DNA of 64,000 bases from Octopus vulgaris (taxonomy: Eukaryota). The notes beneath the pieces were generated by a model. That model saw only the letters and a program-made list of their open reading frames with translations, made no database searches and was not told where the DNA came from. The position numbers and the translations under genes were made by a program. How positions within the stretch are numbered: position 1 is the stretch's first letter; the number at the start of each line of letters is the position of its first letter. The stretch spans positions 104,904,001 to 104,968,000 of the forward strand of contig OX597817.1 in assembly GCA_951406725.2 (NCBI GenBank), given 5' to 3'. Shown here one piece after another: positions 1,834 to 60,363 of this stretch.

Positions 1834-2267
1834 ACAGTGATCCCTCGTTTATCGCGGTAGATTGGTTCCAAGACCGGCCATGATAACTGAATTTCCGTGA
1901 AGCAGGGACACTATATTTACAGTATTTATTTAACATGTATTTGGACTTTTAAAACCCTCCCATTACAGTAGTGTATTAAAACCCACCCATTACAGTAGTG
2001 TATTAATAACAAGGACAACTGTTAAGCAATAACACTTTAGATTTAAAAAAATAAAGATTGTTACTGTACTCAACATGAAAGAAGTTGAAGTAAAATTTGA
2101 ATGATGATGAATTTGCTGCAGAGTAGAAATGATGATGATGAAGCTGACAGCGGTGCCCTTTCCTGGACACCTCTTCCACTTCTTCCGAAGGTGCAACTGT
2201 AGTAGTAGCAGCAGGAACTGGCTCTTTTTTGAGAGGCTTGTTTTGTTGTTCCAAGACTAGGAAATAA
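1834..2267 (-). mobile_element. Tigger/pogo-like transposon terminal fragment
   Basis: CAGTGATCCCTCGTTTATCGCGG resembles Tigger-type TIRs. The adjacent minus-strand acidic peptide KKEPVPAATTTVAPSEEVEE resembles a transposase tail. Truncated at the Penelope junction. Confidence 0.5.
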
Positions 2268-25834: not shown

Positions 25835-28145
25835 TATAATAATAATAATAATTGTGTACAGTGCTCAGGTGCACTACAACTCATCTAAAGTGTATATATA
25901 ATCAGGTGAAGTTTCGGCGGATTTCGGAAAGCATGAGGGCCTTAAAAGATGCAGTGTCATGGCAGTCAACAACTGACGCAGGCAGTTTATTCCATGCTTC
26001 AGCAACTCTGAGCGTGAAAAAATGTTTCCGAAAGTCATGGGAGCTGTATTGTTTTCTGACTTTGTAGGCATGTCCACGTGTGTTAGACACATGGAGATCA
26101 AAAAGGTGTTCAGTGTTGTTGTTGGTGAGGTGGTTGATAACTTTGTGGGTGTTTACCAAGTCCGTCGCCAAACGCCGGAGCTTCAGAGAATCCATGCCCA
26201 GGGAAACAAGGCGCTCAGAATATGGTAGGTGTCTGATGGAGGGTATGCGTTTGGTTGCACGTCTCTGGACAGATTCCAGGAGGTCAATGTTCTGTGCAAG
26301 ATAGGGGTTCCAAACTGATGATGCGAATTCCAAGTGTGGTCGTACCATAGCTGTATACAGTTTTAAATAGATGGCTGGAGAGCGGCTAACAAAAGACCTG
26401 CTGAGTGATGCCAAGACACCCTCGGCCTTCCTGACAATCTTAGAGATATGCTTTGACCAACGCAAATCACTGCTGACAGTGATGCCTAGGTCACGCTCGC
26501 AAGAGGATTTCTTGATATCAGTGTTGTGGAGGGAGTATGTGAACGCAGGGTTTTTTCTCCCAAAATGCATGGTGGTACACTTGTCCACAGCCAGTTTCAG
26601 TTGCCAGTCTGTGATCCATTGCTGCATTGTGTCTAGGTCTGATTGCAGGAAAGAGTTGTAGACATCAGGATCTGTCCTCTTGATTTCAAGGTACAGCTTG
26701 ATGTCGTCTGCATATTTCAATACTGTGGCATTCTTTAAATTGGCATCTATGTCGTTAATGTATGCCACAAACAAGAGGGGCCAAGGACAGATCCCTGTGG
26801 TACACCCGATGACATCTCATATGGTGTAGAGTGCTGTCCTAGAACTGTGACTACCTCCTTTCGGCTGAGGATGAAGGATTTCAACCAGTTAAAAAGGTCA
26901 TCCCCCACACCCATTGCAGAGAGTTTCACCATAAGCCTTTTGTGTGGCACAGAGTTGAAAGCCTTAGCAAAGTCAAGGTAGACAACATCCACCCATGAGC
27001 CACTGTCAGTAATCTGAGTAATGTCCTCAAGGAACTCGACAAGCTGGTCACTGCAGCTGGAGTTAGGGACAAATCCATATTGTGAGGGTCGGATGAGACT
27101 GTGAGAGCTCCAGAAGTTCCAGAGTGTTTCTCTGACACACGATTCCATCAGTTTTGCAATACAGCTAGTGAGACTGACTGGGCGATAGTTGACAGGTGAT
27201 GTGCGGTCGCCCTTTTTGAACAGAGGAATGACACTGGCAGTTTTCCACTGCTCCGGAGTAGCACCATTGTTGAGACAGTACTGGAAGAAAATAGAAAGCT
27301 GGTGTAAAAGGAAGTGCCTGCCACGTTTGAGAAGCAGGTATGTAACTCCATCGAGACCAGGGGAGGCATAGTTGCGCTTATTTTGAAGGTGACGTCGCAG
27401 CATTGCAGGTGTAAATTCCATAGTTGTTATGGAGTTTGCTGTTAGTGATGGTGAAGATGGTACATTTTGACTTTCAACAGTGAATATGTTTGCATAGCAC
27501 TCGGCAATGAGTTCTGCGCATTCCTTGGGGTCGTCAGTGATCTGGTTTGTGTGAGGGTTGCGAAGAGGGCCCACTGGAGAGTGAGGTCTCTGCTTTGAGT
27601 GCACATATTTCCAGAAAACCTTGCTGTCAGGATTGGCTGCTATGCACTGTTCAAATTCAAGCACTGCTTTTTTTGTCACTTGCTTGAGATGGTTGGAGGA
27701 TTTATTCCGCTTCTTCCTGTTGGTGTCTGATTTATGCAACCTGTATTCCCGTTCAGCAGTCCGACGTTCCCTCCTGGCAAGTCGGACCGCTGAAGTTTCC
27801 CAAATTGCCCTTTTGGGGCGGTTCTTCTTTTTTGTTTACGTGGCACTGATGCTGCACATGCTGCCCATATTGAGTCCAGGATACTCTGGAGTATAGTATT
27901 CACATCTCCAGAGTTGTAGAATTCACGCCAGTTTGGGTGCTGTAGTTCAGTGTGGTACAGGTTCCAATCTGCTCTCTTCCAATCGAAGGAAGCAGATTGG
28001 AGATGGTTCAGGTTTTTGTTGCCCGCAAGAGCCAGATTGGCGATGATCATAGCATGATCAGAGTCACCTAGAGGTTCCTCCGTAGTGCAATTGATAACCG
28101 CTTCAGGAGTTGTGGTGAAGAGCAGGTCCAAGGTGTTGTCGCCTC
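25835..28145 (-). mobile_element. 5'-truncated CR1-clade LINE (end of endonuclease + RT, two frameshifts, (ATT)n tail)
   Basis: NTLDLLFTT, SDH, NYRPVSLTS, YLDFAKAFNSVPH, GVPQGSVLGP, KYADDIK, VRPHLEFASSVWNP and TRGH..FFTLRV..WNKLP across ORFs 27676-28131, 26747-27739 and 25902-26774. Possible TSD TATAATAA. Confidence 0.95.
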
Positions 28146-30255: not shown

Positions 30256-33032
30256 GCTAGGAGTAAAAGATGTTCTGTATGACACATTCTACCAATATCT
30301 GAAGTTTTAAAGTGTTTAGTTAAAAAAAATTAATTTATCGACCTGCTGATCAAAAGGAAAAGATCTTCCCTTTGTATTAAAAAAGCAGACTTGTTTATTG
30401 ATCTAATATTTTTGGCGCAGTCATTGAAATGGTTGTCATGCATGCTAAAAATAGCTGCCAAATAGGCCTAGGCCTTAAATCACACTCTATTAAACAATTT
30501 TTGTTTTGCATAATCGTATGAAGTCCTGCGTATAGAATTCAAATTCACAAAAATGTTATGAAAACTCCCAAAAATAAAAAAGTTATGTGGGGTTATATGT
30601 CGTGTGTAATTCTGTGGTTTCATATCAAAACACAAGTGTTATTTTCAGGATGTTGACAAAATGTGCAGTCACGCACAAAATGACAGCTTTGAAATTGTTT
30701 CTTGACTGGGTGAAGATGATCAAACTTTAAGCCTCTGTAACTTTATAAAAACATTTTTCAGGAAAAAGTTGAATAACTCTAGCAATTTAGCATGAAAAGG
30801 TACATTAATGTGCCAAATTAAAAAATTTTTGATAAACTTTAATTTTGAAATGCTGGCAGCCAAACGAACTAGATCTGTATTTACTCCAGTAAAGACATGT
30901 CATCTAACTCTGCTCTATTGACTTCTTCTTCTCTTTGGGAATACCATACTGCCTTTTTGATGCCATCCGTGGAAATTTGTTTTCACATTTTCCCTTTACT
31001 GATGATGCTTACAGTCAAGAAAATTTGTTGACTGTACAGTAGTGATTATTTATCATTTGGATTTATTCCCTCTCCTCAGGACTGTCAGTTACCAATGTGC
31101 CTTCTTTGCCATCAAGCATTGACCAACGAAGCAATGAAACCTTCACGCTTGAAGTATCACTTTGACGCAAAGCATACTGACAATAAGGACAAGCTGTTGT
31201 TATCCTTTTTGCAACTGAGCTCCTCTTTCAAAAAGCAAACACAAACATTCAACACGTTACTCCAGGAAACTAGTAAGCAGGAGAATGACAGGTTGATTGT
31301 ATCATACAACATTGCATTTCTTGTTGTTAAGTCTGGGATGTTTCACACTATTGGAGAAACATTACTTTGCCCAGTTAATGAAAAGAAATTAAGCATGAAA
31401 AATCCGATAACATTATGAAGAACATACTATTTAGTAATAGTACAATTTCTCGATGCATCGATGTCAAACATCAGCTCATTAATATTCTCCAGCATTCTGA
31501 ATTTTCTATACAACTGGATGAGTCAACTGTTGTAAACAATCAATGTTTGATGGTGGTATATATTTGATATTTCCGAGAAAACCTTCAACCTTGTGAGGAA
31601 ATGCTGTTCACAGAGAAATTGCCACTTGATTCAAAAGGTGCAACTATTTTTCACACTCTCAAGTCTTTCCTTTTTGGACATAATATCCCATTCAGTAATA
31701 TTCTTGCTTGTGCATCTGATGGAGCCCCTTCGATGACAGGAAGATACAGAGGTTTTTCATCCTTCTCAAATTGTGAAATCTCCCACCAGATACTAACTAT
31801 TCATTGCTTGGCACACCGACAGCAGTTAGTGGCAAAAAATATGAATGGTAGCTTGAATGATGCGCTATAGTTAGTTATCAGGACTGTGAACAAATTGAAG
31901 TCCAGTCCCTTGTCTGATTGAATTTTCCTTCAACTCCAGCTGAGAAATGATGAGGACTATACTAAACTCATATACCATACTGATGTGTGGTGACTATCAA
32001 AAGGAAACTGTATTTTACGCTTTGTGGAACTGTTCCATAAAATCATCTTTCTTTGAAGGTACTCCACTATCTGCTTCATTGATGGCTGCAAGGTGCAATA
32101 TGTTTTTTCTTTGTGATATATTCACAAAATAAAATGATTTGAAACAGAAAAACTCTCATTGATTGTAAATCATTTATCATGATCTTCATTTCGAAATTGG
32201 TGCTGTATAAGACTACCATTTCAAAATGTCAATTCCATCAATTTCCACAACTTGATACTTTGAAAGATGAATTGGTTGATGAGGATTTAACTACATCTCA
32301 AGTTTAGATCTAAATAACTTTTTTTATTTTAAAAGCAAAATATATTTACCTTAGCTTCAGTGATAGAAGAAAGAATTTCATAGTTTTGATCCCATGCAAC
32401 AAAAATTTGTATCCAAAAAGTTGTGAGGTAAAATATCATGAAAAAAATTTAAGGCAAAAAAATGGATTTAAGTATAATTATTTTATTTTAAAAACAAACT
32501 GTACTTTAATTAAGCTTAAATGATTGAGCTCAATTCAAAGAATTTCATGGTATCAATCTCAGGCAATGAAGTTTTGAAAGAAAAATGTTAAGAGTGTTTA
32601 TTTCCCAAATTTATAATACAGTTCTATACTTTTTTTATGAATATAGTTCTATAAGGGGACTTTTAATAAATGTATCTGGCATCATTGAGGTAAGGAAAAA
32701 ATTATCAATGATACAGCTAACTTGCAATTAGTTTAATTACATCATCTGTATTAATTAATGCAATTATATTATGAAAATGAAAAAAATGAAAATATTATTT
32801 AGAAATTTTGAAAAAAATTTTTATTTATTTTTGTGAGTGGAAATGTACATTTTGTTTGAAGTCAGCATAAAGTGAAAGAGAGAGGAAATGGACATGGATG
32901 TGTGTATGTGTTGATGGAGGGGGTGCTACACAGAAAGTGTGTGTTGTGTGTGTGAGAGAAAGGGAGAGAGTGACAGCGTACGTTTTAAAACTTATTTTCC
33001 TCACATCTTTTTCAGTGAATGTGTGAGTGATG

Positions 33033-40285: not shown

Positions 40286-42051
40286 GGTTGAAAAGGAATT
40301 AAAAATAAAAATTTAGGAAATTTCATTTCACAAAATAAGAATTCAATTTGCTGAGTTATGTTGTTTTCTAATTTTCAATATGAGAGAGATATTTTTGGAT
40401 AGATGATCTTAATTTTTACAAAGACAATTTGAAATAAATCAAACAGAAAATTATATGATGATCAACTGTAATTTGATAAAATTTATTGAATAAAATGTAA
40501 TTGAAGAAGTTGTTTTCTGATGATTCTGAAGAATGTGTAAATCTTTTCATTAAAATCATACATGTAAATTGAAAAGATTTTGAAAGTAATTTTAATTGTG
40601 CAAATAAATACATGGAAGTAAGAGGATAATAAGTAGTAGTAATAGTAGTAATGCTAATAATAAAATATTGATGAAGATAATGATGACTTCTTTATTAGTA
40701 ATAATTTCTTACATTGTTTTAAAGCCTGAGAATTTTAGAGTGGGGAAACTTGTATCATGTATGCCTTTCCCAAAAGCATTAGCAATGTAAATGAAGTGAA
40801 ACAGCCCTGACTAGGATTTAAACCAGGTTATGGATCAATACTAAAAAGCTTACCTCTATGTTATACCACTCAGCCTTTACAAAATAAGAATAACTTCCTA
40901 TGACTGCGAACCAAACCAATGATATATAAATGGAGGATATACAGCCGGAATCAAATTTACACTAGAGATGAGAGGCATAACCAATGCTGATGGGATCTGA
41001 ACAGAGAAACCTAGGACAATGAACTAAACAATTTCTAACATAGGACCAAGGTCAGGAATTGGAGGAGAGACAGTCAATTATATTGACTCAAGTACTTGAT
41101 AGGTACTTTATTTTATTGATCCTGGAGGGATACAAGGCAAAGTTAGTCTCGGTGGGATTTGAACTCAGAATGCGAAAACCCAGAACAAATAACACAAAAC
41201 TTCTGTTTGATGTTCTAATGAATCTAATTAACCCCCTCTACTGAACTAAATAATGTGAAGCACAAAAGTCGACTTCCTTGCAGCTACTAGAGCAATAAAT
41301 GAACCTGGCAGGATTTGAACTCAAAACAAAAAGATACCTAAGTAAATACCACGAGGTATTTTATTCACTGATCTACCAATCCTGATAGTGCTTTATTTCA
41401 AATTGGTCACAGAATACAAATTTGTAGTAGTTGTCCAGGGTATATTCTTACTTAGTGCTATGTAAGTAAATGAAGATACTTAGTATGTTGCTCTACTGCT
41501 TCTGACAACTTAGAAAATAACAAGTGTTATCTTTTGACTGAACACAAGGATAACTTTTGCAAGGGAAAAGAGCTGATTAAATAGAATCCAGTATATTATG
41601 AGTTACTTATTTTGTCAATCCAGTGGGGAGGAAAAGCAAAGTTGATCCTGGTAGGAAAGGAGCTAGGAATTGAAAGAAACAAAACTATATACTGTAAGAC
41701 ATATAGACTATCAACTCAGCTGCCTCCACCATGATGATGATGATGATGCTGATGATAAAGACAAGGATGATGATGATTTCTTTCATTGGCACAAGGCCAC
41801 AAATTTGTAACCCAGCACATAAATAGGTGCATATCAATTTTAGAATCATGAAAGGCTAAGTTGACTCTGATAGGTTTGAACTCAGAATGTAGAGGAGCAG
41901 AACTAAACATATGAAAGCTATTTAGTTTGATATGCCAATCCACCACCTTTATAATGATAACAAAACAACAGCAACAACAAAAACATGATGATGACAAGAA
42001 AGCCAAGTTACCTTCAACCTTTGGGTTTTTTTAAAAAAAAAAAAAGTTAAA

Positions 42052-42057
42052 TTTATT
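42052..42057 (-). terminator. Candidate polyadenylation signal of the AT-hook gene
   Basis: AATAAA about 115 nt after the stop, followed by a T-rich run on the minus strand. Confidence 0.4.
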
Positions 42058-42171
42058 ATTTATGGTTTGATATAAACCATTATAATTACATTAAATGATA
42101 GTTGCATTGGTAATTTTGTCTTATGAGCTGAGAAATGAAAAACAATTATGAATATTGTTTATACTTTATAT

Positions 42172-45100
42172 TTAACTTAATTTTTGTTTAACTATATCTA
42201 TTGTTTTTTTCTGTTGCTCCAATTTGTCTTTAAGACGTTGGATTCGAGCTAATTCAGGGGTGAGTCCCACATTAAACTTATTCAGTAAGGCACTATGGTG
42301 TGTACGAGTAATATTTGCTTCTTGATCAGTTTCGGAATACTTAGGTTGTATTGTGAATGAATTGTCATTTGCTGAAAGATTTACAGGAGAAGGCTGAGAA
42401 AGAGAAAATTTGGGGCTATTTTCAGTATCATCTGGGGAAGTACCACAAGGATGACAGACTTCTGTCACATCACTCGAAGCAAAAGTTTGTTCTAAGTCAT
42501 CTTGAGAATACATAGAAGCCTGGCTTGTTTTAGAAAAAGGTGACATATTTGATTCAGAAAAATTATCACATTCTGTAGAGTCTAAGGATGGTGAAAGTGG
42601 TTGTTGTAAGGATACGGATTTTGAGGGGACCAATTTTATTACATCTGAACTATTATTAACTAAAATGGGTACAGGTGAGCTCGGTGGGAGCTCTGTTACA
42701 TTATCAAAGGTCTTTTTACAATCATGTTTCTTAAATATATTATTTTCTGAGAGAACATCATCATAATCTACTGATGGTTCCTTTATAATTTTGTCCTCAT
42801 CTATATTATCTCTAACACATTCCTTTATCATATTACTGCATGAAAGGAGAGAACCCGTTGTAAGAGGTAATTTTGTTTCATTGGTAATATTTTCTCCATC
42901 TGTGCCACATGGACACTTAAGAACTTGTCGTTCAAGAACATCATTTGAGTGTTTAGAATGAATCTTAGAAGTTTTCTTCCTTTTTTTCCATGCTTTATTT
43001 TGAGCTACGATTTTTCTTTTCTTTCTCAAGCATGGTAATTTGATTTCTTCTGTAGCTTCCATATCTGTTTGTAAATTACTGGAATGATCATCCATGAGTG
43101 ATACTGAATTATGGGAAGGGACCTTAGTATCCATTCCAGTTAGTCTGGTTGTCTGTGTAGATAAACAATATTTACCACGTCGTTTTGAGGATTTTCTTCT
43201 CCTGAAAGATTTTTTTGATGCTTGCAGAATGTTGTGTTTGGCTACTGCAGAAGAATTTTTCAAGAGACTATTATCACAGGGAGGTATTCCAGTCTGATAA
43301 GTATGGTCATAATTTAGAGTCCCAGAAACTGGTCGTACTTTTAATTTTGCTGGACGCCCTCTTTTACGGCCAGGAGGACGAGAAACAGTTGTTGAAGAAT
43401 TATTTAGTGTGGAGAAGTTATTCAAAGAGGTTTGGTATTCATTTATTTTCTGGGTATTAATTAAATCAGTGCAAATGTTTTTTATATCCAGTGTATCTTT
43501 CAATTCAGTTTTACAAGTTACAAAATTTGGATTTGAACTGCAGTTACTCACAGTTGTTGATATAAGTTTTCTGGCAGTCTTAGATTTTATATCAAAACTA
43601 TTTTCAGTAAAGTCGTGATTTTTAAAAGGCTGCCGAGCTATTTTTTTCCAATTGACAGGTTTCTTACAAACACTATTTAACTTTGAAGAACTCAAACTTA
43701 GCCGAACTTTTTTCTTACGTGATGATGCCATATAAATAGCATCAATGATATTTTGAATATTCAATTTCTTTGGGCACTGAAGAACTGGTTTAATATCTTT
43801 TGATATGTTTCCCTGATTTCGAGTGAGTTTCTCTTGGATTTCTATGATCAATGAATTCATTGACCCAGAAGTCTTTACCTTTTGGAGCTTAGCCTTTTTA
43901 TATTTTCTTTTTAACAAACGCTTACCAAACTGAGTTTTTACACATGGTTTCTCTGAAAGCTTGAAAGAACGGTCTTTAGGAGGGCGTCCCCTTTTCTTAG
44001 GAACTTTTTTTTCTTTCTCTGACTTTTTTCGTGTGATTAGCCGGTCATTGGGATCAAGCATAACAACACGATCAGTAGTAGTTGGTTCATTATAAAAAGA
44101 TTTCACTTCTTCTAAAGAAGGAGCATGTTCATAATTAGACTGTTTCTTAATATTTTTCTTAATGGTTAATTTTGACATTACATTATTTGTTAAAGCTGAG
44201 TTAATGGTGTTATTCATAAAACACTCATTTTCTTTTAACAGCTGCATTTTCTCATCAAAAGTTTTCCGTTTTCTCTCAATTTTATTTTTCCCAAACTTTT
44301 TCTTTTTTATGATAATCTCACTTTTTGATGGTAACAGTAACTGTTCAGGACTTTTTGTTAGACAAGAAATATTCCTTTGCTGTGAAATAGTTGTTTTCTC
44401 TAAACCTTCTGCATTTTTATATCCCAAATTCTTTGGATTAGGAACCAATTGATTATTGGAGTTGCCTTTGAGAATTCCATTTTTACAAGCATCATTCTGA
44501 TTCTTTGTAACTGGAATCATATTAGAACTGCAATTCATAGAGAGAAATTTTTCTTTTGGAACTATTTCATATTTTAGTTTACCAATAATGCTGTTTTCAG
44601 TAGAAAATGGTGGTGGTGGTAGTGGTGATGGTGGCAGTGGTGTTATCAAGGCACCAGTATTTGATATTGCTGCTTTGGAACTCAAAGCAGCATTATTTGG
44701 TGCTTTTGAAAATGTGTTCAGTGAATTTGGCACACTTTCATTACCACAATTATTATTGAAAATTGGCAAGCTTTCCTTGTTTATATCTGCATATGAGTTT
44801 GTATAATTTGCTGTTAGTTTGTCATTAGATAATTTAAAATAATTATGTTCTGTATCTACAGTTTGAGAATGAGTATTTAAAGTCTGGGAAGAATTTGGCA
44901 CACCTGGATTGCCATAAAATTGTGGTTTCATCACAGGAGCATGAATAAAGCTTTCACTTCTCAGTTCTGGTTGCTTTAACAAAGAAACATAATTCCCTGA
45001 AAAATGTTTCATTTGAAGAGTATCTGACTGTATAATGTTTTTATCACTAAATTCAGTTGGGTAATCTAAGTTACTGGTGTGTAGAGAAGCTGGTTTTTCA

Positions 45101-47376
45101 GTTTTGATCATTTGATTATCATCTTTTATTAATGGTCCATTAGAAGGACGCTTAAACAAAGGTAAGGACCCAACACTTGATGCTGTTTTCATGAACTGCT
45201 GCCTGCATCTTTTTGAACATTTTATAGACGTGACAAGTCTATATGGAAGATCTTTTAAATCTACAGAGCCACAGTAACCAAGTTCTGACAATACAACACA
45301 GCAGTGAATACTTCGAGCTATTTCAAATAAAATAGTATAGTGGTTTATAGATTTTTTATATTTGGATGACTTAGCCAACATACAGCTAAATAATTTACCG
45401 AAAGACAATTTTCGATTCTTTTTAAGCCCTGCTGCATATCTTGAACGGTCTGGTAATGATGGTGCCATATTGTCTGTATGATTTTGAAGCAATGTAGATG
45501 ATAACTGTGTGTTTGTTTGATACTGAGGTTGTAAGTTGGGTGGATAGGGATCATTTTGTACAAAACCATATCCATCTTCTCGTTCAAGTTTAGGAGGACT
45601 CATATCTCCAGGAACGTTTGTTGGTGTACAATCATCAAAGAATTCTTCTCGTTCTTTTATTACCAGAAGGTTTGAAGGGGATTTTTTCTTTTTATTTGAA
45701 TTTTTTTGTTTTGATTTAACAGAGGAAAAACCTGGTGCAATCGTTAGCTTTGGGGGAGAAGAATATATCTGACGTTTAGAAGGTACTGGAGGTATTTTCA
45801 TGTCCCGAGAAAGAATTGGGCCTTTATTAGAATCAGTGCAAATCTCTAGAGTGTTCTGATTAATACTTACATTCCTGTGTGGTAAAATATTTGATAAAGT
45901 TTGTTTATAATCTGCAATACTAATTGGAACTGGATGGTGGTCTGATATAAAACTAGTCTGTGAAATAAACTCTTGGGATGGGGAATGCAAAGAATAAGCT
46001 GGGATGGAACTGGAGTTCATTTTGGAATTGGAGGGTGCCATGCTCCACAATGATCGTGAAGTACTCGTTAATTGCACTGGAGAGAAAGGAACAGTAGATT
46101 TTATGGAAGCAGGTATATCATATACTTTTGGAAAGGATTTCCTGGCCCGTGGACCATAAGGTCGTTTAGGATCGACCTTTTTTTGAGAAATGGATTCACT
46201 CTTACTAAAACTTAACCCAGAAGATGTATGAGGCACTGTTGGTGAATTTAACGAGGTTTTAGCATTGTCCACAGAAGAAAAGTTACATTTTAGTTGATTT
46301 GAACCATTGTTTTCAGATAGAGAACAATTCATACCATTGTTTACAAGAGTTGAAGGAGCACATTTCTGTGTTAAACAGGCAGTCTTTAAGTTACAACTAC
46401 CAGTAATAATTTTAGAATTTTCTGATGTTCCAGTAATATCTCTATTTCCCCTGATGTTCTCTACAGATTCTCTCAGTTTAGCACACTGAGTAGCATAGTC
46501 ACTTGCATTCTCTGCAGATTTTGGTAAAATAGAGACATGCTTTCTCACATGCACATTTGTTTCTTGCAAATTCCCTACTTTATTTGGTACAGTCATTTTG
46601 GCGGCTGTTGGGAGAGGTGCACCAGAGAGTTTATCAGAGTCAGACAAATCTGATTTGACTAGTATCTTATCATGAAGGGGTGATGAATTAGATGTTACTG
46701 ACTGATTAATTCGATCAGCTGGGTTAGCTGCCTGAGAAGCAATTAGCTTGTTTTGACTTGATGAAATAGCTGTTAGAGAGGGATTTATTAGAGATAAATC
46801 GCTTGTACCAGATGTTGGAATGAGCAAATATTGTTTAGGTTGCATTTTAGATTGTGTTTGTGAACCAGTAGTTAATATAACCATTCCAGGTTTATTATTG
46901 GAAATCTGATATAAAATTTGATTGTTATCAGCAACTGATGTGGTGGTTGTTGTTGTTGTTGTTGTACTTGATGTTACATTAGATGCATTGCAGTTAATTT
47001 TTACAGAATGGAAGTCAGGTGGATAAGTTTTGTCTGTTACTAACAGTAGCTTCTTAGTTCCATTTGTTGGGGAAGTGATAGTGATTAGGGAGTGAATATT
47101 TGATTTAATAGCTGCTGGTGTATGGGGCTCAGCTGGAGATGAAATAGATAAGCCTGTCTGTGTAGCATCTGACTGTGACTTGAGATTTGTCTTTGTAATA
47201 GTTGAAGTTTTTTTAACACGAATAAATGGCTCTGCTGGTGCTATAACTTTTACTGCTCTGGGTTTTGACTTTCTAAGGCGAATGTGGTGATGTTTATTCT
47301 TATCATTTTCACTTTTCTTTGGTCTCCCACGCCGAGGCTTGACATTTGTAGCAGGATCGCTTGAATTTTGCTCCAT
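42172..47376 (-). CDS. Uncharacterised 1734-aa low-complexity nuclear protein with three AT-hooks and a C-terminal coiled coil (possible LRIF1-like chromatin adaptor)
   Basis: Uninterrupted 5205-nt ORF in AT-rich DNA with no TE domains seen. Acceptor ttttttttccag| at 47401, with an in-frame TGA between it and the ATG, so the ATG is probably the true start. AT-hooks PRRGRPKK, KKRGRPPK and RKRGRPAK; several basic NLS-like tracts. Confidence 0.9.
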   Translation of the reverse strand: MEQNSSDPATNVKPRRGRPKKSENDKNKHHHIRLRKSKPRAVKVIAPAEPFIRVKKTSTITKTNLKSQSDATQTGLSISSPAEPHTPAAIKSNIHSLITITSPTNGTKKLLLVTDKTYPPDFHSVKINCNASNVTSSTTTTTTTTTSVADNNQILYQISNNKPGMVILTTGSQTQSKMQPKQYLLIPTSGTSDLSLINPSLTAISSSQNKLIASQAANPADRINQSVTSNSSPLHDKILVKSDLSDSDKLSGAPLPTAAKMTVPNKVGNLQETNVHVRKHVSILPKSAENASDYATQCAKLRESVENIRGNRDITGTSENSKIITGSCNLKTACLTQKCAPSTLVNNGMNCSLSENNGSNQLKCNFSSVDNAKTSLNSPTVPHTSSGLSFSKSESISQKKVDPKRPYGPRARKSFPKVYDIPASIKSTVPFSPVQLTSTSRSLWSMAPSNSKMNSSSIPAYSLHSPSQEFISQTSFISDHHPVPISIADYKQTLSNILPHRNVSINQNTLEICTDSNKGPILSRDMKIPPVPSKRQIYSSPPKLTIAPGFSSVKSKQKNSNKKKKSPSNLLVIKEREEFFDDCTPTNVPGDMSPPKLEREDGYGFVQNDPYPPNLQPQYQTNTQLSSTLLQNHTDNMAPSLPDRSRYAAGLKKNRKLSFGKLFSCMLAKSSKYKKSINHYTILFEIARSIHCCVVLSELGYCGSVDLKDLPYRLVTSIKCSKRCRQQFMKTASSVGSLPLFKRPSNGPLIKDDNQMIKTEKPASLHTSNLDYPTEFSDKNIIQSDTLQMKHFSGNYVSLLKQPELRSESFIHAPVMKPQFYGNPGVPNSSQTLNTHSQTVDTEHNYFKLSNDKLTANYTNSYADINKESLPIFNNNCGNESVPNSLNTFSKAPNNAALSSKAAISNTGALITPLPPSPLPPPPFSTENSIIGKLKYEIVPKEKFLSMNCSSNMIPVTKNQNDACKNGILKGNSNNQLVPNPKNLGYKNAEGLEKTTISQQRNISCLTKSPEQLLLPSKSEIIIKKKKFGKNKIERKRKTFDEKMQLLKENECFMNNTINSALTNNVMSKLTIKKNIKKQSNYEHAPSLEEVKSFYNEPTTTDRVVMLDPNDRLITRKKSEKEKKVPKKRGRPPKDRSFKLSEKPCVKTQFGKRLLKRKYKKAKLQKVKTSGSMNSLIIEIQEKLTRNQGNISKDIKPVLQCPKKLNIQNIIDAIYMASSRKKKVRLSLSSSKLNSVCKKPVNWKKIARQPFKNHDFTENSFDIKSKTARKLISTTVSNCSSNPNFVTCKTELKDTLDIKNICTDLINTQKINEYQTSLNNFSTLNNSSTTVSRPPGRKRGRPAKLKVRPVSGTLNYDHTYQTGIPPCDNSLLKNSSAVAKHNILQASKKSFRRRKSSKRRGKYCLSTQTTRLTGMDTKVPSHNSVSLMDDHSSNLQTDMEATEEIKLPCLRKKRKIVAQNKAWKKRKKTSKIHSKHSNDVLERQVLKCPCGTDGENITNETKLPLTTGSLLSCSNMIKECVRDNIDEDKIIKEPSVDYDDVLSENNIFKKHDCKKTFDNVTELPPSSPVPILVNNSSDVIKLVPSKSVSLQQPLSPSLDSTECDNFSESNMSPFSKTSQASMYSQDDLEQTFASSDVTEVCHPCGTSPDDTENSPKFSLSQPSPVNLSANDNSFTIQPKYSETDQEANITRTHHSALLNKFNVGLTPELARIQRLKDKLEQQKKTIDIVKQKLS

Positions 47377-48740
47377 TTTAGCTTTATAGCATCACAGAGA
47401 CCTGGAAAAAAAAAAAAAAGAATGATTAAAAAACTTTGCATTTGTAAATAGATTTTAAAAGCTCTAACAATAACATAGGATAGAATATAAGAATTTAGTG
47501 GAGAGCTGCCGACAGATTGATCTCCTTGTTGAGTTGACTGATCGACTGTCTTAGCAGCACTATTTCTCATTTTCAAAGACAACCTTCAAACTGTTATCAC
47601 AGTTTCTTATACCATAAATTTGTCTAATCACTGCCAAATTGAGAGTTGAACCTGCAAGCTTTCCCTGATTGTATCTCTTTTGCTAAGAAGATTGCTATTA
47701 ACAAGTTGGCTCTGTAAACAATATTTCCATGGACAAAAATCCTGTATCTACCACTGGGTTAGCACCTAAACCCATTCAACACAAACAATAAAACTCTCCA
47801 TGGATTCACCATCTCAAACTGAATACTACATGGATACAGTGGTCACATAGGAGCGAGTCCTGTTATTAATTAAAGCTCATCAAGTTGATCAATCCTGAAA
47901 ACGTTTCTGCTACCATCATACTAGAAAAAAAATTATATGAAGCTGCCTTCTATCCTCACCAAATCCCTCTCTCTTTCTAGGATATCTATCCCTAGTTGTG
48001 GAAATACAAGACAATGAGTCTCATTCTCAAAAATGGCAACCTTACCAGATATCCTTCCACTTCCAAAATCCTTGAAGTAAAATCTTTTATTACACTTCAT
48101 TTATTTGCTTACTCAGCAATGACTAATACATTTTTCATAAAGCTAGATCTACTTGATATTTACTTTCTTATATCACATCTTGTTTCGAGATTTCAACAAA
48201 AGCAAACATGTTGCCCATGATATCAGCATAAAAACCACCTTCTAGTAAAGAATGTTATCCCTTTGATAGGAAATTTCTTGCGAGACTACCATCCTAACAA
48301 GTCTGCAGTGTCTCAATGTTTGGTTATATCTTGCACAATCTCACCTTCTGTACATTAATCACTTGATAGCTGTTAACTCTACTAATCATATCCTCTTATA
48401 CAGATCCCATAACATTCTAAAATGGATTAATTCTTAAATAAACACACACACACAATCATTTTAGATTGCATCCAAATCAGGGCAACCAAGTTATAAGCAA
48501 GTTTTCATTAACTAACATTGTTACACTGTTCTGTTTTGCACTCTTGACTTTTCAACTACAACTAAAATTGTTTCTGTAATGTTACTAAGCAAAGCTGCAT
48601 TCTTATTCTAACATTGTTTGAAATTTAATGCATAATGTCTTTGGTTTGTCCAATGAGGATATTTCTAAACCAACCAGTTCACATATGAAACTAATTTCAC
48701 AAGGCTCAGAACAAAGACAAATTTCAGTTAAGATACCTAA

Positions 48741-52498: not shown

Positions 52499-52756
52499 TA
52501 ATAATAATAATAATAATAATAATTGTGTACAGTGCTCAGGTGCACTACAACTCATCTAAAGTGTATATATAATCAGGTGAAGTTTCGGCGGATTTCGGAA
52601 AGCATGAGGGCCTTAAAAGATGCAGTGTCATGGCAGTCAACAACTGACGCAGGCAGTTTATTCCATGCTTCAGCAACTCTGAGCGTGAAAAAATGTTTCC
52701 GAAAGTCATGGGAGCTGTATTGTTTTCTGACTTTGTAGGCATGTCCACGTGTGTTA
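52499..52756 (-). mobile_element. Short 3' copy of the CR1 LINE at 25835-28145
   Basis: Appears identical to ~25835-26085; the ORF track gives the same 71-aa peptide at 25852 and 52523. (ATT)n tail. Confidence 0.95.
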
Positions 52757-54510
52757 TGGAATGACTTGATCATAGGCTGTAGTTTTAGGAGAGATGTAAA
52801 AACAACAAATGCAAATGAATTAACCAAGCTTCAAATGAAAAATAAAAAAGCAAAACAATGAAATTGCTAATTGGAAAATAATTTGATTATTTTTAAATAC
52901 ATAATCACTTTATGAAAATTTTTTATCAACTAAATGAAGATTATGATTTAAATGAGCATACCAGTCATTAAAATTTACAAGTTCTGACCCTTTCTCCCTT
53001 GGAATTCATAGTTATGTGGGTAACTAGGCAATTCCAACAGTGCTGGTGGCATGAAAAAAGCACCCCGTACAAACTCTAAAGTGGTTGGCATTAAGAAGGG
53101 CATCCAGCCATAGAAATTATGTTGGAGTGGACACTGGAGCATGATGCAGACCTCGGATCATCAATCAGATCCTATCAACCTGTTCAACCCATGCCAACAT
53201 GGAACATGGCATTTAATTATATGTACAATCATTTTGATGTCCATATTTCCCTACTTGCATTGGTCAGTTGGAATTTGTTTAGGCAAATTTTCTATGACCA
53301 ATGCCTATGCAGTCAACTCTCTTCTATTTCCAAGCAAGGTAATATTTCTCATGTCCAGACATGTTTTTATGGAGGATTGAAAATTAACAATATTGCATGA
53401 GTAATGCTCATTAACAACTGTTGCATGATATCAAGGAGACACAGATACACACATTTATACAAATATCGAACAGTGAGAATGGGCGCTCAACACTGTAACC
53501 AAGAGATCTTCACAATCATTCAGGTATACCGCATGGAAGTGTTGGTACTCACCTCCACTTTGGATGAGAATACATGAGATTGAACAGGATTTCAAAATAA
53601 ATACACAGATCATGGGAGGTAACTAATAAGAATACCTTGTTACTTCCCTTGTGTTAGACCTGGATTTTTGCAAGAAATTGTGTTTATAAATTATTTAATT
53701 TTCTAATGCAATAGTATTCATATATATATATATATATATGTAAATGTATTGTGTGTGAGAGATTAAATATACTTGGTGATCTTTTGCTCTTTGAAAGAAT
53801 TGTTTTCTTGGAAACTGGAAGTTTTCACTTTCTCTTAGCTATATTTAATGTCTCTGATTGTCATTCACTCCACCTCCAGTTACTGTTTCAGGTCTCCCAC
53901 TACCAATATGCCCTCAAACAAAAACAAAGTAAATTGAAAATTATATCATATCAAAGAATTATAAACATCTAAAACTCTTAAATTTATAAGATACTAATTT
54001 CCAAACATGTGCATGGATAAGAGGCTCAAACTAGTACAGAAATATAAAAAAAGAATATGAAAAGATAAATGAAATAAACTTCCTAGAAATAGCCTCCAGT
54101 TTAGAGCTGACAACATTGCTAAGATGAATATGACTTTTTTTACCTATGTCAAACTTCTTGGTATCGTTTATTCAAAATTTTCAGACCAGAATTTCCAGGC
54201 TAAATTTCAACTATTAGATGGATATTACTTATGAGGAGCTGACATTCAAAGTACAATTTAAGGTATAATATCAGTTAGCAGCAGAGCTCCTAATGTCCTC
54301 TTAAGTAAATGAGGAAGAGAAACAAGACACCCCCACCCCCAAAAAGTACTACCAATTATTCAGTATATGCACCAACACACATTCCGCCAAGTTAAAATAG
54401 CCCTGTAGCTCTTATCAATACTTACAGGCATCTACTATTGTTTCTTAACCTTCATAATAATCACATTCATCACACAATTTTTTAAATTTCTAATTAGGTA
54501 ATTCAATCTA

Positions 54511-55704
54511 TCAGGTTGAGTAAAAAGTAAGCAATGTTTTCAACCATGAAGAATTTGTATTGGATTTTTGCAGAATTTTGAATTTTTTAAAAACATTTCT
54601 TTTGCAATTGTCTGATAATACAGACACAGACTTGCTCAAATGCATCAATAAATTAACATTGATATTTTTTTCACTGTTAATACAATCATCTGAAATGGAA
54701 CTATCAAAGTGTGATATTCAAGCAATTTTGCAATTCAACTTCAAAAAGGGATGTAAAGCAGTTGAAACTGCTTGTGATATCAATGAAATGTTTGGTGGGG
54801 AATTGACCAGTGAATGGTCAGTTAGAAAATTGTTTAAACTATTTCACAGTGGAGATCTGAGCCTTGAAGATCATGAGCATAGTGGATACCCATCTGTCAT
54901 TGATGACAATCAAAGACCATCATTGAGAAAGATCCTCATAAAACCATGAGAACTGGCAAAAGAACTTCAAGTTAGCTAAAAAACTGCCTGCAACTATTTG
55001 CATGTGATTGGAAAATCAAAAGCGCTCGACAAATGGGTACCACACAATTTGAATGAAAATCAGAAAATGTGCAGATATGCAATTTGCTCGTTACTTCTCT
55101 GTAATCAGATTGATCCATTTCTCGATCATATTGTAGCTTGCAATGAAAAGTGGATTCTGTACAATAATAAAAAAACATTCTTTGCAATGGTTTGATGGTG
55201 TACTGCTGGACTCATCCACTATAACTTCTTAAAACTCCAAAAAACCATTACTGAAGAAACATATTGCCATAAAATTGCCAAAATGAATGAAAAACTGCTA
55301 CTCCTCCACCCCAGACTGGTCAACAGAAGAGGGCCAATCATTCTCGATCATGTTTCACTAATGATACTCAAGAAATTGAGGGAACTTGGCTATGAAGTTC
55401 TTCCCCACCCAGCTTATTCCTCAGACCTTTCTCTTACTGACTATCACTTTTCCAAGCACTTTGATGGTTCCCTGTGAGAGAAGGAGTTCAGAAATCAAAT
55501 TGACGCTGAAAGTGTGTTCTAAGAGTTCTTCAGTTCGAGAACTCCAGATTTTTATGTTACTGGAATAAACAAACTTGTAACTCATTGGCAAAAATATGTT
55601 GATTGTAATGGTGCTTATTTTGATGAATAAAATTTCCACATCGTTGAAATATATTGTGATGAATTTCATGCTTCAAAACATTGCTTACTTTCTACTCAGC
55701 CTGA
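54511..55704 (+). mobile_element. Near-full-length mariner with defective transposase (~54695-55630)
   Basis: TA|TCAGGTTGAGTAAAAAGTAAGCAATGTTTT ... AAAACATTGCTTACTTTCTACTCAGCCTGA|TA. Motifs WVPHNL, CNEKWILYNN and HPAYSSDLSLTDYHF; frameshifts. Confidence 0.95.
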
Positions 55705-56129: not shown

Positions 56130-57070
56130 ATGCTAGGACTTTCATCATCATCTCATGTGTATTTATCTTCTGTCCCATCATATGCATTCAAAATTCTCTT
56201 TCTTGAAAGATTTTATAATAATGTCAACTTATAATTTCCTTTCATAGATTAAAGATAGTGATGGAATGTGCATAGTGCCTCCTTTCCATGTAGGATTTTA
56301 CCCTTCATCATGAATCCAGTTACTTAATTTTGTTTTCACCATGTCCTCAAATGGTTTATTTACATCAACAGTAAACTGTTGTAAAATACTCACAAGTCTA
56401 CTAAGTGTTACCCCTATGTAAGTATTTTGCAGTCAGACTTTAACAGAAATACTCTTCACTACATGTGATCTAAACTTATTTCAGGTGAACAAACCTTCTC
56501 CTTCCTTTCATAGTCCAAGTTGTAAATGCCAAACTTCTTCAATCCATGTTCATCCATTGAGTCTTGTGGTTGATTACATACAATTCTTTTTGGAATAGTT
56601 TTCTCTGAAAAATAACCATCTGACTACTTTTTTGTGTTTTCCATCAGTACCATTTGCTACAAAAGAAGGAACTACAGGAAATCTTATTTTCTCATGCTCA
56701 ATAGTTTTCATCAGTAATATTTCCTATTTAGTTTGCAGATCATCTCTTTGTATGTCAAGATTAACAGGTTTCATCCCCTTTTTCTCTGTATGATTATCTC
56801 TAACTTTCCTTCTGATTTCTGATAGCAAATTAAGGAAATAGAAGTAACATACTATTTGGATCAGCAGACAACTTTTGTGCCATCTTACCTCATAAGCTCT
56901 GTGCCCTGCTAAAATTTGCCCTAAAATCTAAAATTCTACCCTTTTCTGATTACTTATGCATATAGTTCAGAGGCTCCATGAGGTACATATTTTTTTCATC
57001 TTAATGTTTTCCAAGTACCTTCTCAACAACTTTCATCTGAAATTGTAAGGTTGAACTTCTATTCTCAGAG
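56130..57070 (-). mobile_element. Old pogo (POGK-like DDE_1) transposase remnant
   Basis: Minus-strand fragments FQMKVVE, MAQKLSAD, EHEKIRFPVV, WIEEVW, FRSHV, VDVNKPFEDMV..NWI..TWKGG..PSL, IIIKSFKK and NAYDGTED occur in the pogo order. Confidence 0.7.
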
Positions 57071-60000
57071 ATTGTTGATCATATTATCTAAAGTCTGACA
57101 AATTTCTTTAGTCTCTCACAAATTCATCTAAACACCAAATTCTCTTGTTGCTTATATTGCTGTACAATTGATGTTTCTCCTAGGAGGTCTTTTTTTCACA
57201 AAATGACAGACTGTATTCCAGGAGTGTTGTACAGGAACTAATATCAGCTGCCCTACCAAGTGAAACTGTGAACAAATTTTGACTTGACTTTTATACAGCA
57301 TTTCCATTAGAGTGTTAGAAACAGGGACCAGTAATTGTTACCTTTTGTAACTTAACTGACAACACTGGTACACTGCTTCACAATTATACGTACATGTATG
57401 AAATGTAGGCTGATGAAGCAACAAGTACAGGTAAATGCATATGGTCTAGTTTATGTAAGAAATGCTGTATTTTGTATCCCCCTAATTATACACCACAGTA
57501 ATTGCAACACCTTTGTGATAATGGACCAAAGAGATCCATAACCCAATATCTTTGTGAAATGTATGTCAAAAACACAGAGAGAAAATTCATTTTTTACCAT
57601 AACATTTAGACATAGGATAATCCCTTGACCAACATTGTTGATCTGTTGCCCATGAAAAACTAGGGTCAAGTTTAATTTCTGTTTCAGTAAATATAGTATT
57701 TGCTGTGCAGCAAATAGATCTCACTTCATTAACTGCATAAATTTGTGTGAAAGTTCTTATTTATATGTGAAAGAACATTTAAAAGTAATACAAGTGTGAG
57801 ATTCCTTTTCAATATCTTACATCCATTATTGATGAGAAGTATCAAATGTCTTCATAATTCGATAGAAAAAAGGTTTTTCACTCAATATGCCCAAATGATG
57901 GAAGGGAATTAACAATCTATTTGCTTGCAATGGTACAATGACAGTGATGATGATGATAATTCTAATTTTGGCACAAGACTAGCAATTTTGAGGAGAAAGT
58001 GTGAGTTGATGCTATCAACTGGTACATTAATCTCTACTGGGATGGAAGACAAAGTTGATTTTAGATGATACAGACACTATGTACAGGGTTTTCTATCCAA
58101 GCTACCAACTGGTTCCACTAGAGTTATATGTATTTTAGGCTTGTCAATTAAGGCAAACTTAGGTGAAAAGAGCAATTGGAAAGAGGGAAAAATCAAAACT
58201 CTTAAATAAAACTCAGAACAGAATAACAGTTCCGATTGAAAGTGAAAGAAAATAACAGTAAAAGAAAGTCAATAGTAGTACATGATGTGAAAATGAAATT
58301 GTCATGCTTGAAAGTTTTCATTATATGAAAAGACTCACAACAGAAACTAACAACCACAAACACAAATTAAAACATGTATCATTTACTGAGAACTCAGATT
58401 TCAATATAATACAGCTGCCATAATTGAAGTGTGTCTAAATATACTTATTTGACAAGTGAAACATTCTGCTTTGAAGTCTTGTTAATATGAGGATTCAGCA
58501 ATCCAAATTTCAATTCCTCACAATATCTTTTGCTGGTTTCAGTCATAGCCACATTGGAACACTGACTTCAATAGTTTGTATGATTATCTCTAACTTTCCT
58601 TCTGATTTCTGATAGCAAATTAAGGAAATAGAAGTAACATACTATTTGGATCAGCAGACAACTTTTGTGCCATCTTACCTCATAAGCTCTGTGCCCTGCT
58701 AAAATTTGCCCTAAAATCTAAAATTCTACCCTTTTCTGATTACTTATGCATATAGTTCAGAGGCTCCATGAGGTACATATTTTTTTCATCTTAATGTTTT
58801 CCAAGTACCTTCTCAACAACTTTCATCTGAAATTGTAAGGTTGAACTTCTATTCTCAGAGATTGTTGATCATATTATCTAAAGTCTGACAAATTTCTTTA
58901 GTCTCTCACAAATTCATCTAAACACCAAATTCTCTTGTTGCTTATATTGCTGTACAATTGATGTTTCTCCTAGGAGGTCTTTTTTTCACAAAATGACAGA
59001 CTGTATTCCAGGAGTGTTGTACAGGAACTAATATCAGCTGCCCTACCAAGTGAAACTGTGAACAAATTTTGACTTGACTTTTATACAGCATTTCCATTAG
59101 AGTGTTAGAAACAGGGACCAGTAATTGTTACCTTTTGTAACTTAACTGACAACACTGGTACACTGCTTCACAATTATACGTACATGTATGAAATGTAGGC
59201 TGATGAAGCAACAAGTACAGGTAAATGCATATGGTCTAGTTTATGTAAGAAATGCTGTATTTTGTATCCCCCTAATTATACACCACAGTAATTGCAACAC
59301 CTTTGTGATAATGGACCAAAGAGATCCATAACCCAATATCTTTGTGAAATGTATGTCAAAAACACAGAGAGAAAATTCATTTTTTACCATAACATTTAGA
59401 CATAGGATAATCCCTTGACCAACATTGTTGATCTGTTGCCCATGAAAAACTAGGGTCAAGTTTAATTTCTGTTTCAGTAAATATAGTATTTGCTGTGCAG
59501 CAAATAGATCTCACTTCATTAACTGCATAAATTTGTGTGAAAGTTCTTATTTATATGTGAAAGAACATTTAAAAGTAATACAAGTGTGAGATTCCTTTTC
59601 AATATCTTACATCCATTATTGATGAGAAGTATCAAATGTCTTCATAATTCGATAGAAAAAAGGTTTTTCACTCAATATGCCCAAATGATGGAAGGGAATT
59701 AACAATCTATTTGCTTGCAATGGTACAATGACAGTGATGATGATGATAATTCTAATTTTGGCACAAGACTAGCAATTTTGAGGAGAAAGTGTGAGTTGAT
59801 GCTATCAACTGGTACATTAATCTCTACTGGGATGGAAGACAAAGTTGATTTTAGATGATACAGACACTATGTACAGGGTTTTCTATCCAAGCTACCAACT
59901 GGTTCCACTAGAGTTATATGTATTTTAGGCTTGTCAATTAAGGCAAACTTAGGTGAAAAGAGCAATTGGAAAGAGGGAAAAATCAAAACTCTTAAATAAA

Positions 60001-60363
60001 ACTCAGAACAGAATAACAGTTCCGATTGAAAGTGAAAGAAAATAACAGTAAAAGAAAGTCAATAGTAGTACATGATGTGAAAATGAAATTGTCATGCTTG
60101 AAAGTTTTCATTATATGAAAAGACTCACAACAGAAACTAACAACCACAAACACAAATTAAAACATGTATCATTTACTGAGAACTCAGATTTCAATATAAT
60201 ACAGCTGCCATAATTGAAGTGTGTCTAAATATACTTATTTGACAAGTGAAACATTCTGCTTTGAAGTCTTGTTAATATGAGGATTCAGCAATCCAAATTT
60301 CAATTCCTCACAATATCTTTTGCTGGTTTCAGTCATAGCCACATTGGAACACTGACTTCAATA
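56787..60363 (+). repeat. Apparently exact tandem duplication of 1787 bp (56787-58573 and 58577-60363) with GTT at the junction
   Basis: Constant offset 1790; identical ORFs at 57451 and 59241; no mismatch noticed by eye. Confidence 0.95.

Follow-up and report, generated by a model that had tools for sequence, protein, structure and literature searches.

Does the octopus genome encode a chromatin adaptor of the LRIF1 type, one that could load SMCHD1 onto chosen DNA? The question is raised by a stretch of 64,000 nucleotides of Octopus vulgaris (contig OX597817.1, positions 104,904,001 to 104,968,000; hereafter the window), in which a minus-strand gene encodes a long protein whose last residues resemble the coiled coil that closes vertebrate LRIF1. 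In LRIF1 the terminal coiled coil binds SMCHD1 and a PxVxL motif binds HP1, according to PMC10307901. LRIF1 and SMCHD1 have been studied in mammals and zebrafish, at the inactive X, D4Z4, Hox genes and clustered protocadherins (PMC13434421, PMC4628070, PMC9226161, PMC7811963). A search of the open-licence literature returned nothing on LRIF1 in invertebrates, and SMCHD1 and octopus co-occurred there only in a review that treats them separately. We propose, with a probability of roughly one half, that the window gene encodes a diverged LRIF1-tail chromatin adaptor that is predicted to dock SMCHD1 and to target AT-rich or HP1-marked chromatin. A better-supported new result reaches beyond this gene: octopus has three genes with an LRIF1-type helix together with a full SMCHD1 gene, and the helix also occurs in one gastropod protein. 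The open-licence literature searched yielded no paper on this.

A terminal helix family that probably includes the window protein

The first-pass annotation of the window quoted a C-terminal peptide at 42172-42260 and called its protein an orphan. The peptide does close a real gene product, a minus-strand frame (42172-47391) that is open for 1739 codons and terminates in LTPELARIQRLKDKLEQQKKTIDIVKQKLS before the stop; the start was as given, and the end lies at 42264, four bases further on. A methionine at 47376 yields a product of 1734 residues, the length of the nearly identical 'uncharacterized LOC115210682' of O. sinensis. A whole-protein search in which 7986 candidates were scored returned four proteins, namely the O. 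sinensis record, one at 88%, one from Argonauta at 61% and one of 1926 residues at ~30%; the distant relatives are presumably from other cephalopods. With orthologues and a paralogue (below), the protein is no orphan. Across seven orthologues 214 of the 1734 positions (12%) are invariant, clustered in short blocks, whereas 18 of the last 40 residues are; the expected conservation of the tail thus held, and on this alignment the tail is under constraint. The protein as a whole is likely to be a large, mostly disordered chromatin protein.

We searched the same genome with the Pfam LRIF1 family (PF15741). The last 30 profile positions matched a 1225-codon frame on C2 at its end (E, the expectation value, 0.9 genome-wide); a second match, on C5 (E 0.43), was dropped as a low-complexity short frame. 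The C2 frame is the last exon of P0015, which is labelled FLO11-like or mucin-5AC. Its tail matched Pfam LRIF1 at E 8e-6, and the tail of its orthologue, which that profile had not picked, did so at E 5.2e-8. When the C2 tail was used to search the genome, the sole non-self match fell 0.5 Mb from the window gene, in a 965-codon frame on C4, and the reverse search led back to C2. This neighbour (P0026, LOC115210227 / LOC106870219, 932 residues) has a tail of the type that matches Pfam LRIF1 at E 0.01, and in O. bimaculoides the window and neighbour genes are numbered consecutively as loci; in Argonauta the contigs that bear the two are equal in length. The two also share a Cys/His-containing domain (pairwise E 2e-4; 95.8% in hhalign): in reciprocal genome searches each was the other's sole non-self match in a long open frame (E 1.4 and 1.2, among 7 and 5 matches), and cross-profile scores exceeded the top decoy in 5/5 and 4/5 cases.

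For direct comparisons with LRIF1 our reference was seven chondrichthyan (shark) PF15741 proteins, and mouse positions were matched via shark. A tail profile (A6) built from five tails (two window-type, two C2-type and one neighbour) and no vertebrate sequence was run on 7990 candidates of 77-2000 residues at E<=10. The 26 matches comprised 18 proteins of the three octopus-gene families, the seven chondrichthyan PF15741 proteins (E 8.6e-4 to 2.7e-2) and one protein of the gastropod Gigantopelta aegis, with no unrelated coiled-coil protein among them. In hhalign, with shallow profiles, the window tail reached 96.5% against the neighbour and 92.5% against C2, and the neighbour and C2 tails reached 97% and 98% against LRIF1; 31 control windows from SMCHD1's real coiled coils, all of one protein family, reached at most 3.7% with any of the four tail profiles. 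An LRIF1-tail profile gave neighbour tails 17.7-24 bits and the helix of C2 and of the Gigantopelta protein 21.7-40 bits, with the top decoy at 5.0. Compared with shuffles that keep the hydrophobic pattern, in a register fixed beforehand by eye, the window tail resembled the C2 and neighbour tails at P 0.005, and the tail of its orthologue P0005 did so at P 1.5e-5. These results can be read as a gradient that runs from LRIF1 through C2 and the neighbour to the window gene, which stands farthest from LRIF1. They support membership of the window tail in a specific motif family that includes the LRIF1 terminal helix, as opposed to a generic coiled coil, and the window tail is likely to be homologous to that helix by a transitive link through the neighbour.

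The Gigantopelta protein (P0047/P0048, labelled mucin-17-like) was picked up through its tail alone. P0047 also carries KCSxxCR, the five fixed residues of which were already invariant columns beforehand; by composition, 1e-4 occurrences are expected, and the seven-residue motif is found in 0 of 61 SMCHD1 matches (below). Short motifs common to the C2 and neighbour families occur in P0047 in the same order. A beta-hairpin likeness between P0047 and shark LRIF1 was not significant, since 4 of 100 decoys scored as high. P0047 is a candidate for the unduplicated molluscan form. It appears likely from these comparisons that one molluscan ancestor gave rise to three cephalopod paralogues, of which C2 would be nearest to LRIF1. 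The window gene is the most diverged of the three and not the nearest LRIF1 match; as counterpart of LRIF1 in octopus, C2 is the better candidate.

SMCHD1 in the octopus genome and its predicted contact with the tail

The first-pass annotation proposed that an SMCHD1 orthologue be confirmed in this genome, and one was found. A genome profile search placed SMCHD1_S5 exons on C3, and 61 proteins matched when a single hinge exon was the query. One of these, the 2068-residue SMCHD1 P0096, has the ATPase, S5 and hinge by Pfam as well as matches to 6mw7 and 6n64, solved chains of SMCHD1; it maps by tblastn as 35 collinear pieces (52% identity) to G000:C3:8.33-8.40 Mb, both coiled-coil arms included, and the ATPase, S5, linker, coiled-coil and hinge exons lie there in order. 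The SMCHD1 locus was not among the seven matches of an SMC_hinge genome profile search; its hinge exons were found by tblastn instead. Judged by this collinear exon order, a full SMCHD1 gene is present. The chromoshadow domain (PF01393) was above cut-off on C10, almost entirely in one exon, and on C6, which marks two HP1-type loci.

Because SMCHD1's own coiled coils are required (excerpt of bioRxiv 2025.07.08.663435), the surface that is contacted may belong to the arms instead of the hinge proper (see also the excerpt of PMC4628070). We predicted a complex of the 40-residue window tail with two copies of residues 1000-1346 of a stand-in SMCHD1, with alignments unused. The score was 0.39, compared with 0.02 for the best control; at least 77% of contacts agreed between runs, and the partner had a predicted local distance difference test score (pLDDT) of at least 67. 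The mark used was reached by 51/78 solved and 2/108 mismatched microbial pairs and by 39/65 solved and 2/126 unrelated eukaryotic pairs, a calibration that does not extend to peptides. Thus the tail-hinge complex suggested in the first-pass annotation passed weakly, and the model lends weak support to contact between tail and SMCHD1. A search of the PDB with the tail profile returned no LRIF1-type chain, which makes it unlikely that the model reproduced a solved complex. The docking guess preceded the prediction, so the pass raises the odds a little.

In mouse LRIF1 the changes R732E/L733A/K734E abolish SMCHD1 binding (excerpt of bioRxiv 2024.11.18.624083). The Arg-Leu-Lys triplet (RLK) is carried by 12 of 14 shark LRIF1 helix copies, and the single RLK there aligns with residues 1714-1716 of the window protein. 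The LRIF1 mutants are said to originate with Nozawa et al. 2013. L-K is retained in 8/8 window-family tails, and R-L-K in the four octopod-type ones (the window protein and three close orthologues).

A second potential contact is CCVVL. Two hydrophobic pentamers centred on Val/Ile, of which it is one, are conserved in 7/7 orthologues; a CxVxL pentamer binds HP1 in Drosophila dATRX/XNP (excerpt of PMC2324200). In the mechanism that we envisage, the terminal helix would pack on the coiled-coil arms flanking the SMCHD1 hinge through its RLK face, and the AT-hook-like motifs and basic tracts would hold DNA in the minor groove of AT-rich sequence, as AT-hook families do. CCVVL might, with less certainty, engage the HP1 chromoshadow dimer. 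The protein would then load SMCHD1 onto chromatin, as LRIF1 does in mouse cells (PMC13434421). SMCHD1 binding by the window paralogue is predicted at about even odds; HP1 binding is doubtful. It is nonetheless likely that the protein works like LRIF1 and that the helix is shared by descent.

Evidence against an LRIF1-type adaptor, and alternative explanations

A number of results weigh against this proposal, and the first concern direct comparison with LRIF1. PF15741 gave no match for the whole window protein, for its last 142 or last 38-40 residues, or for the orthologues P0004, P0005, P0008 and P0030. A profile of six window-family tails gave the seven shark LRIF1 proteins 3.6 bits or less, below the best of 504 decoys (8.3), and the LRIF1-tail profile gave window-family proteins at most 3.5 bits, below its top decoy; hence the reciprocal profile match anticipated in the first-pass annotation did not materialise. 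In hhalign the window tail reached 11% against shark LRIF1, with a score of 15.3 where control coiled coils attained as much as 13, and a profile of the seven shark proteins gave nothing above 5 bits in the conserved N-terminal and central LRIF1 core for 5/5 window-family proteins. Three defining LRIF1 tests having come out negative, we do not file the window protein as an LRIF1 member. Of the suggested 'LRIF1-like factor', what survives is a tail that sits, transitively, in the LRIF1-helix motif family; a direct match and the core are lacking, and C2 is closer.

The wider family carries caveats of the same kind. A6 returned no single-copy vertebrate LRIF1. The seven shark proteins that it did return (P0040-P0046) each have two terminal-helix copies, 115-145 residues apart, which boosts their A6 score; the two copies suggest two docking sites. 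A neighbour-tail profile placed 3/6 window-family tails above the top decoy but none of the octopod ones, and genome searches with window-family tails matched the window gene only, with no paralogue. Against the whole Cys/His domain P0047 scored 3-5 bits, within the decoys, so that only the seven-residue motif stands out. The short motifs that P0047 has in common with the C2 and neighbour families resemble what we take to be SUMO-related motifs, which presumably recur in unrelated proteins. A metagenome scan with the tail alignment gave 542 pattern matches, none of them confirmed, and an Atlas feature search gave no match for the tail.

One alternative, which we regard as possible though less than probable, is that the tail derives from the LRIF1 helix but has lost SMCHD1 binding. 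The helix would dimerise or bind another partner, the protein would be an AT-hook scaffold, and C2, perhaps with the neighbour, would keep the adaptor job. The window family alone has altered positions that are kept across the helix family (the acidic residue before R-I, E-I-L and L-E-x-x-R) and has gained a conserved extension before the helix, and these changes are themselves conserved among orthologues. In addition, four distant orthologues have Gln or Lys for the Arg of RLK (QLK/KLK), and the best LRIF1 match in this genome is C2 (G000:C2:1.64 Mb). The invariant L-K, the R-L-K kept in octopods and the passing complex score speak for retained binding. That score has weaknesses of its own: the stand-in SMCHD1 shares 48-84% identity, exon by exon, with the octopus gene, the control chains were of kinds other than amphipathic helices, and scores of 0.60 or less comprise only 5 of 78 solved complexes but all four mismatches that passed. 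A helix might also dock on coiled-coil arms without specificity.

A generic coiled coil at the C-terminus that came to resemble LRIF1 by convergence or by chance is an improbable account of the tail. The helix has just 24 residues, there is no direct profile match in either direction, Pfam and the PDB give unrelated helices at comparable weak scores, and the register of the shuffle test was set by eye. Set against this, the window and neighbour genes have two separate elements and their location in common, the neighbour tail is tied to LRIF1 both in hhalign and by bit score well above the decoys, the control coiled coils stayed far below, and the pooled profile drew in no unrelated coiled coil.

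The octopus orthologue of LRIF1 is very unlikely to be the window gene itself. That gene does have LRIF1's two functional marks, a terminal helix and an upstream PxVxL-type pentamer, but both the PF15741 genome search and a search with the Gigantopelta tail point to C2, and with no core similarity it is largely refuted as sole orthologue. Equally remote is the idea of a distant NEXMIF/PWWP2A-like nuclear protein with an incidental tail, for although Atlas feature matches for residues 640-745 fell in the Pwwp2a cluster (0.81) and NEXMIF/DUF4683 clusters (0.79), shuffled proteins reach 0.8 in one-third of cases, the features in common number only 99-109 of 256, and Pfam DUF4683 did not match.

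The HP1 contact is subject to separate objections. CCVVL meets the full HP1a consensus (excerpt of PMC12526061) in 1/7 orthologues, without basic flanks, and its place within the Cys/His domain means that it may be structural. Shark LRIF1 agrees with the same consensus at its own box in only 1/7, so the consensus test is insensitive.

Comparison with known systems

The proposed adaptor resembles LRIF1/HBiX1 (PF15741) in being long and of low complexity, with a same-family helix at its end in the same register, an RLK triplet, an upstream PxVxL-type pentamer and partner genes in the genome. It differs in being about twice as long as shark LRIF1 and in lacking a detectable core or direct profile match; its AT-hook-like motifs and Cys/His domain are missing from the seven shark proteins, pentamer and helix lie ~1020 residues apart as opposed to 165 in mouse (bioRxiv 2024.11.18.624083), and the gene is one of three paralogues. 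The C2 product and P0047 share the terminal helix, and P0047 the KCSxxCR motif; in these proteins, unlike the window protein, the helix matches LRIF1 directly. Motifs of the IKxEP..GYG and LxIxxVxSL types are theirs and are missing from the window protein, and neither octopod C2 proteins nor P0047 have RGRP. The neighbour resembles the window gene most in layout, with a single long open frame, the Cys/His domain and the terminal helix on the same chromosome, and octopod neighbours have one RGRP; it is shorter, richer in cysteine, nearer to LRIF1 in its tail, and without annotation or Pfam match. With Drosophila dATRX/XNP the window family shares an invariant C-x-V-x-L pentamer (excerpt of PMC2324200). 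Compared with CxVxL ligands of HP1, CCVVL is without the basic flanking residues that the HP1a access-code consensus calls for (excerpt of PMC12526061), and its surroundings are a conserved Cys domain instead of sequence that is obviously disordered.

Gene structure and other features of the window

Contigs of four runs, which we guess to be RNA although they are not recorded as such, cover the frame with no differing letters, in three of the four as a single ~7-kb record. In 4/4 runs they depart from the genome at 47401-47402, and coverage just upstream is almost nil. Since they leave the genome at a sequence-defined acceptor, there is a hint of a spliced transcript, probably with an upstream non-coding exon. 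Features are collected in Table 1.

The AT-hooks named in the first-pass annotation are there as three RGRP motifs, the first invariant across orthologues, but at 12.5 bits they fall below the Pfam AT-hook (PF02178) cut-off of 17.4. Two AlphaFold2 predictions of the Cys/His domain were unusable (mean pLDDT 41.7 and 38.3), and a PDB search with its profile gave matches only at E>=1. We take KCSxxC to be reminiscent of FCS/MYM zinc fingers.

Table 1. Features of the window gene (window coordinates) and of related and partner loci elsewhere in the genome
Feature	Position	Strand	Basis
Single coding exon, 1734 residues, S/K/N/T/P-rich, mostly low-complexity (LOC115210682-type)	42172..47376	-	frame and orthologue comparison
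Splice acceptor (pyrimidine run then CAG)	47401..47425	-	sequence and contig ends
Probable 3' untranslated region, AATAAA near 40487	40470..42171	-	contigs and sequence
Diverged LRIF1-type terminal helix, residues 1711-1734, predicted to dock SMCHD1	42175..42246	-	tail profiles, hhalign, complex prediction
Arg-Leu-Lys triplet, residues 1714-1716; putative counterpart of mouse LRIF1 R732/L733/K734	42229..42237	-	alignment via shark LRIF1
Conserved extension preceding helix, residues 1695-1710, peculiar to window paralogue	42247..42294	-	orthologue alignment
Cys/His-containing domain, ~residues 652-742, common to neighbouring paralogue	45150..45423	-	pairwise, hhalign, genome searches
CCVVL, residues 692-696, CxVxL candidate HP1 box, invariant in 7/7 orthologues	45289..45303	-	orthologue alignment and literature motif
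KCSxxCR motif, common to paralogue family and Gigantopelta protein	45202..45222	-	motif comparison
AT-hook-like motif 1, kept in every orthologue aligned	47314..47337	-	RGRP motif
AT-hook-like motif 2	43975..43998	-	RGRP motif
AT-hook-like motif 3, lost in some orthologues	43345..43368	-	RGRP motif
Three short conserved linear motifs, residues 540-601	45574..45759	-	orthologue alignment
Two more conserved linear motifs, residues 1098-1107 and 1241-1251	43624..44085	-	orthologue alignment
C2 gene, last exon	L007:4283-7960 = G000:C2:1639282-1642959	+	
Neighbour paralogue	L018:4278-7076 = G000:C4:105439277-105442075	+	
SMCHD1 locus (L023, L009-L014, L020, L021)	G000:C3:8.327-8.407 Mb	+	
Chromoshadow locus on C10	L042:1258-1662 (G000:C10)		
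Chromoshadow locus on C6	L043/L044 (G000:C6)		

Elsewhere in the window, 56787-58573 and 58577-60363 are identical 1787-base tandem blocks, which were either duplicated very recently or arose as an artefact of assembly. A long interspersed nuclear element (LINE)-type element with its reverse transcriptase (RVT_1) spread over shifted frames occupies 25902-28143 (-), and 52573-52830 (-) is a copy of its 3' end. Broken frames at 2003-3815 (-), 31032-31418 (+) and 54524-55477 (+) are presumably like Penelope/GIY-YIG, hAT-like and Tc1/mariner remnants; 3186-3815, the part of these that was scanned, had no Pfam match.

Implications for SMCHD1 silencing in cephalopods

A 24-residue helix family with members in sharks, in a gastropod and in three octopus genes offers a way to approach the docking surface of SMCHD1 by sequence, and proteins now called mucin- or FLO11-like get relabelled. 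As a tentative evolutionary scenario, the SMCHD1-docking helix of LRIF1 would be older than the divergence of molluscs from vertebrates, and cephalopods would have expanded it into three adaptors. The window protein would add AT-hooks and a Cys/His domain to the HP1 route, or substitute them for it, and so aim SMCHD1 at chosen DNA such as protocadherin clusters. These clusters are vastly expanded in octopus (excerpt of PMC7811963), and their control by SMCHD1, as in mammals, becomes testable. In this scenario cephalopods would have a diversified SMCHD1 silencing system.

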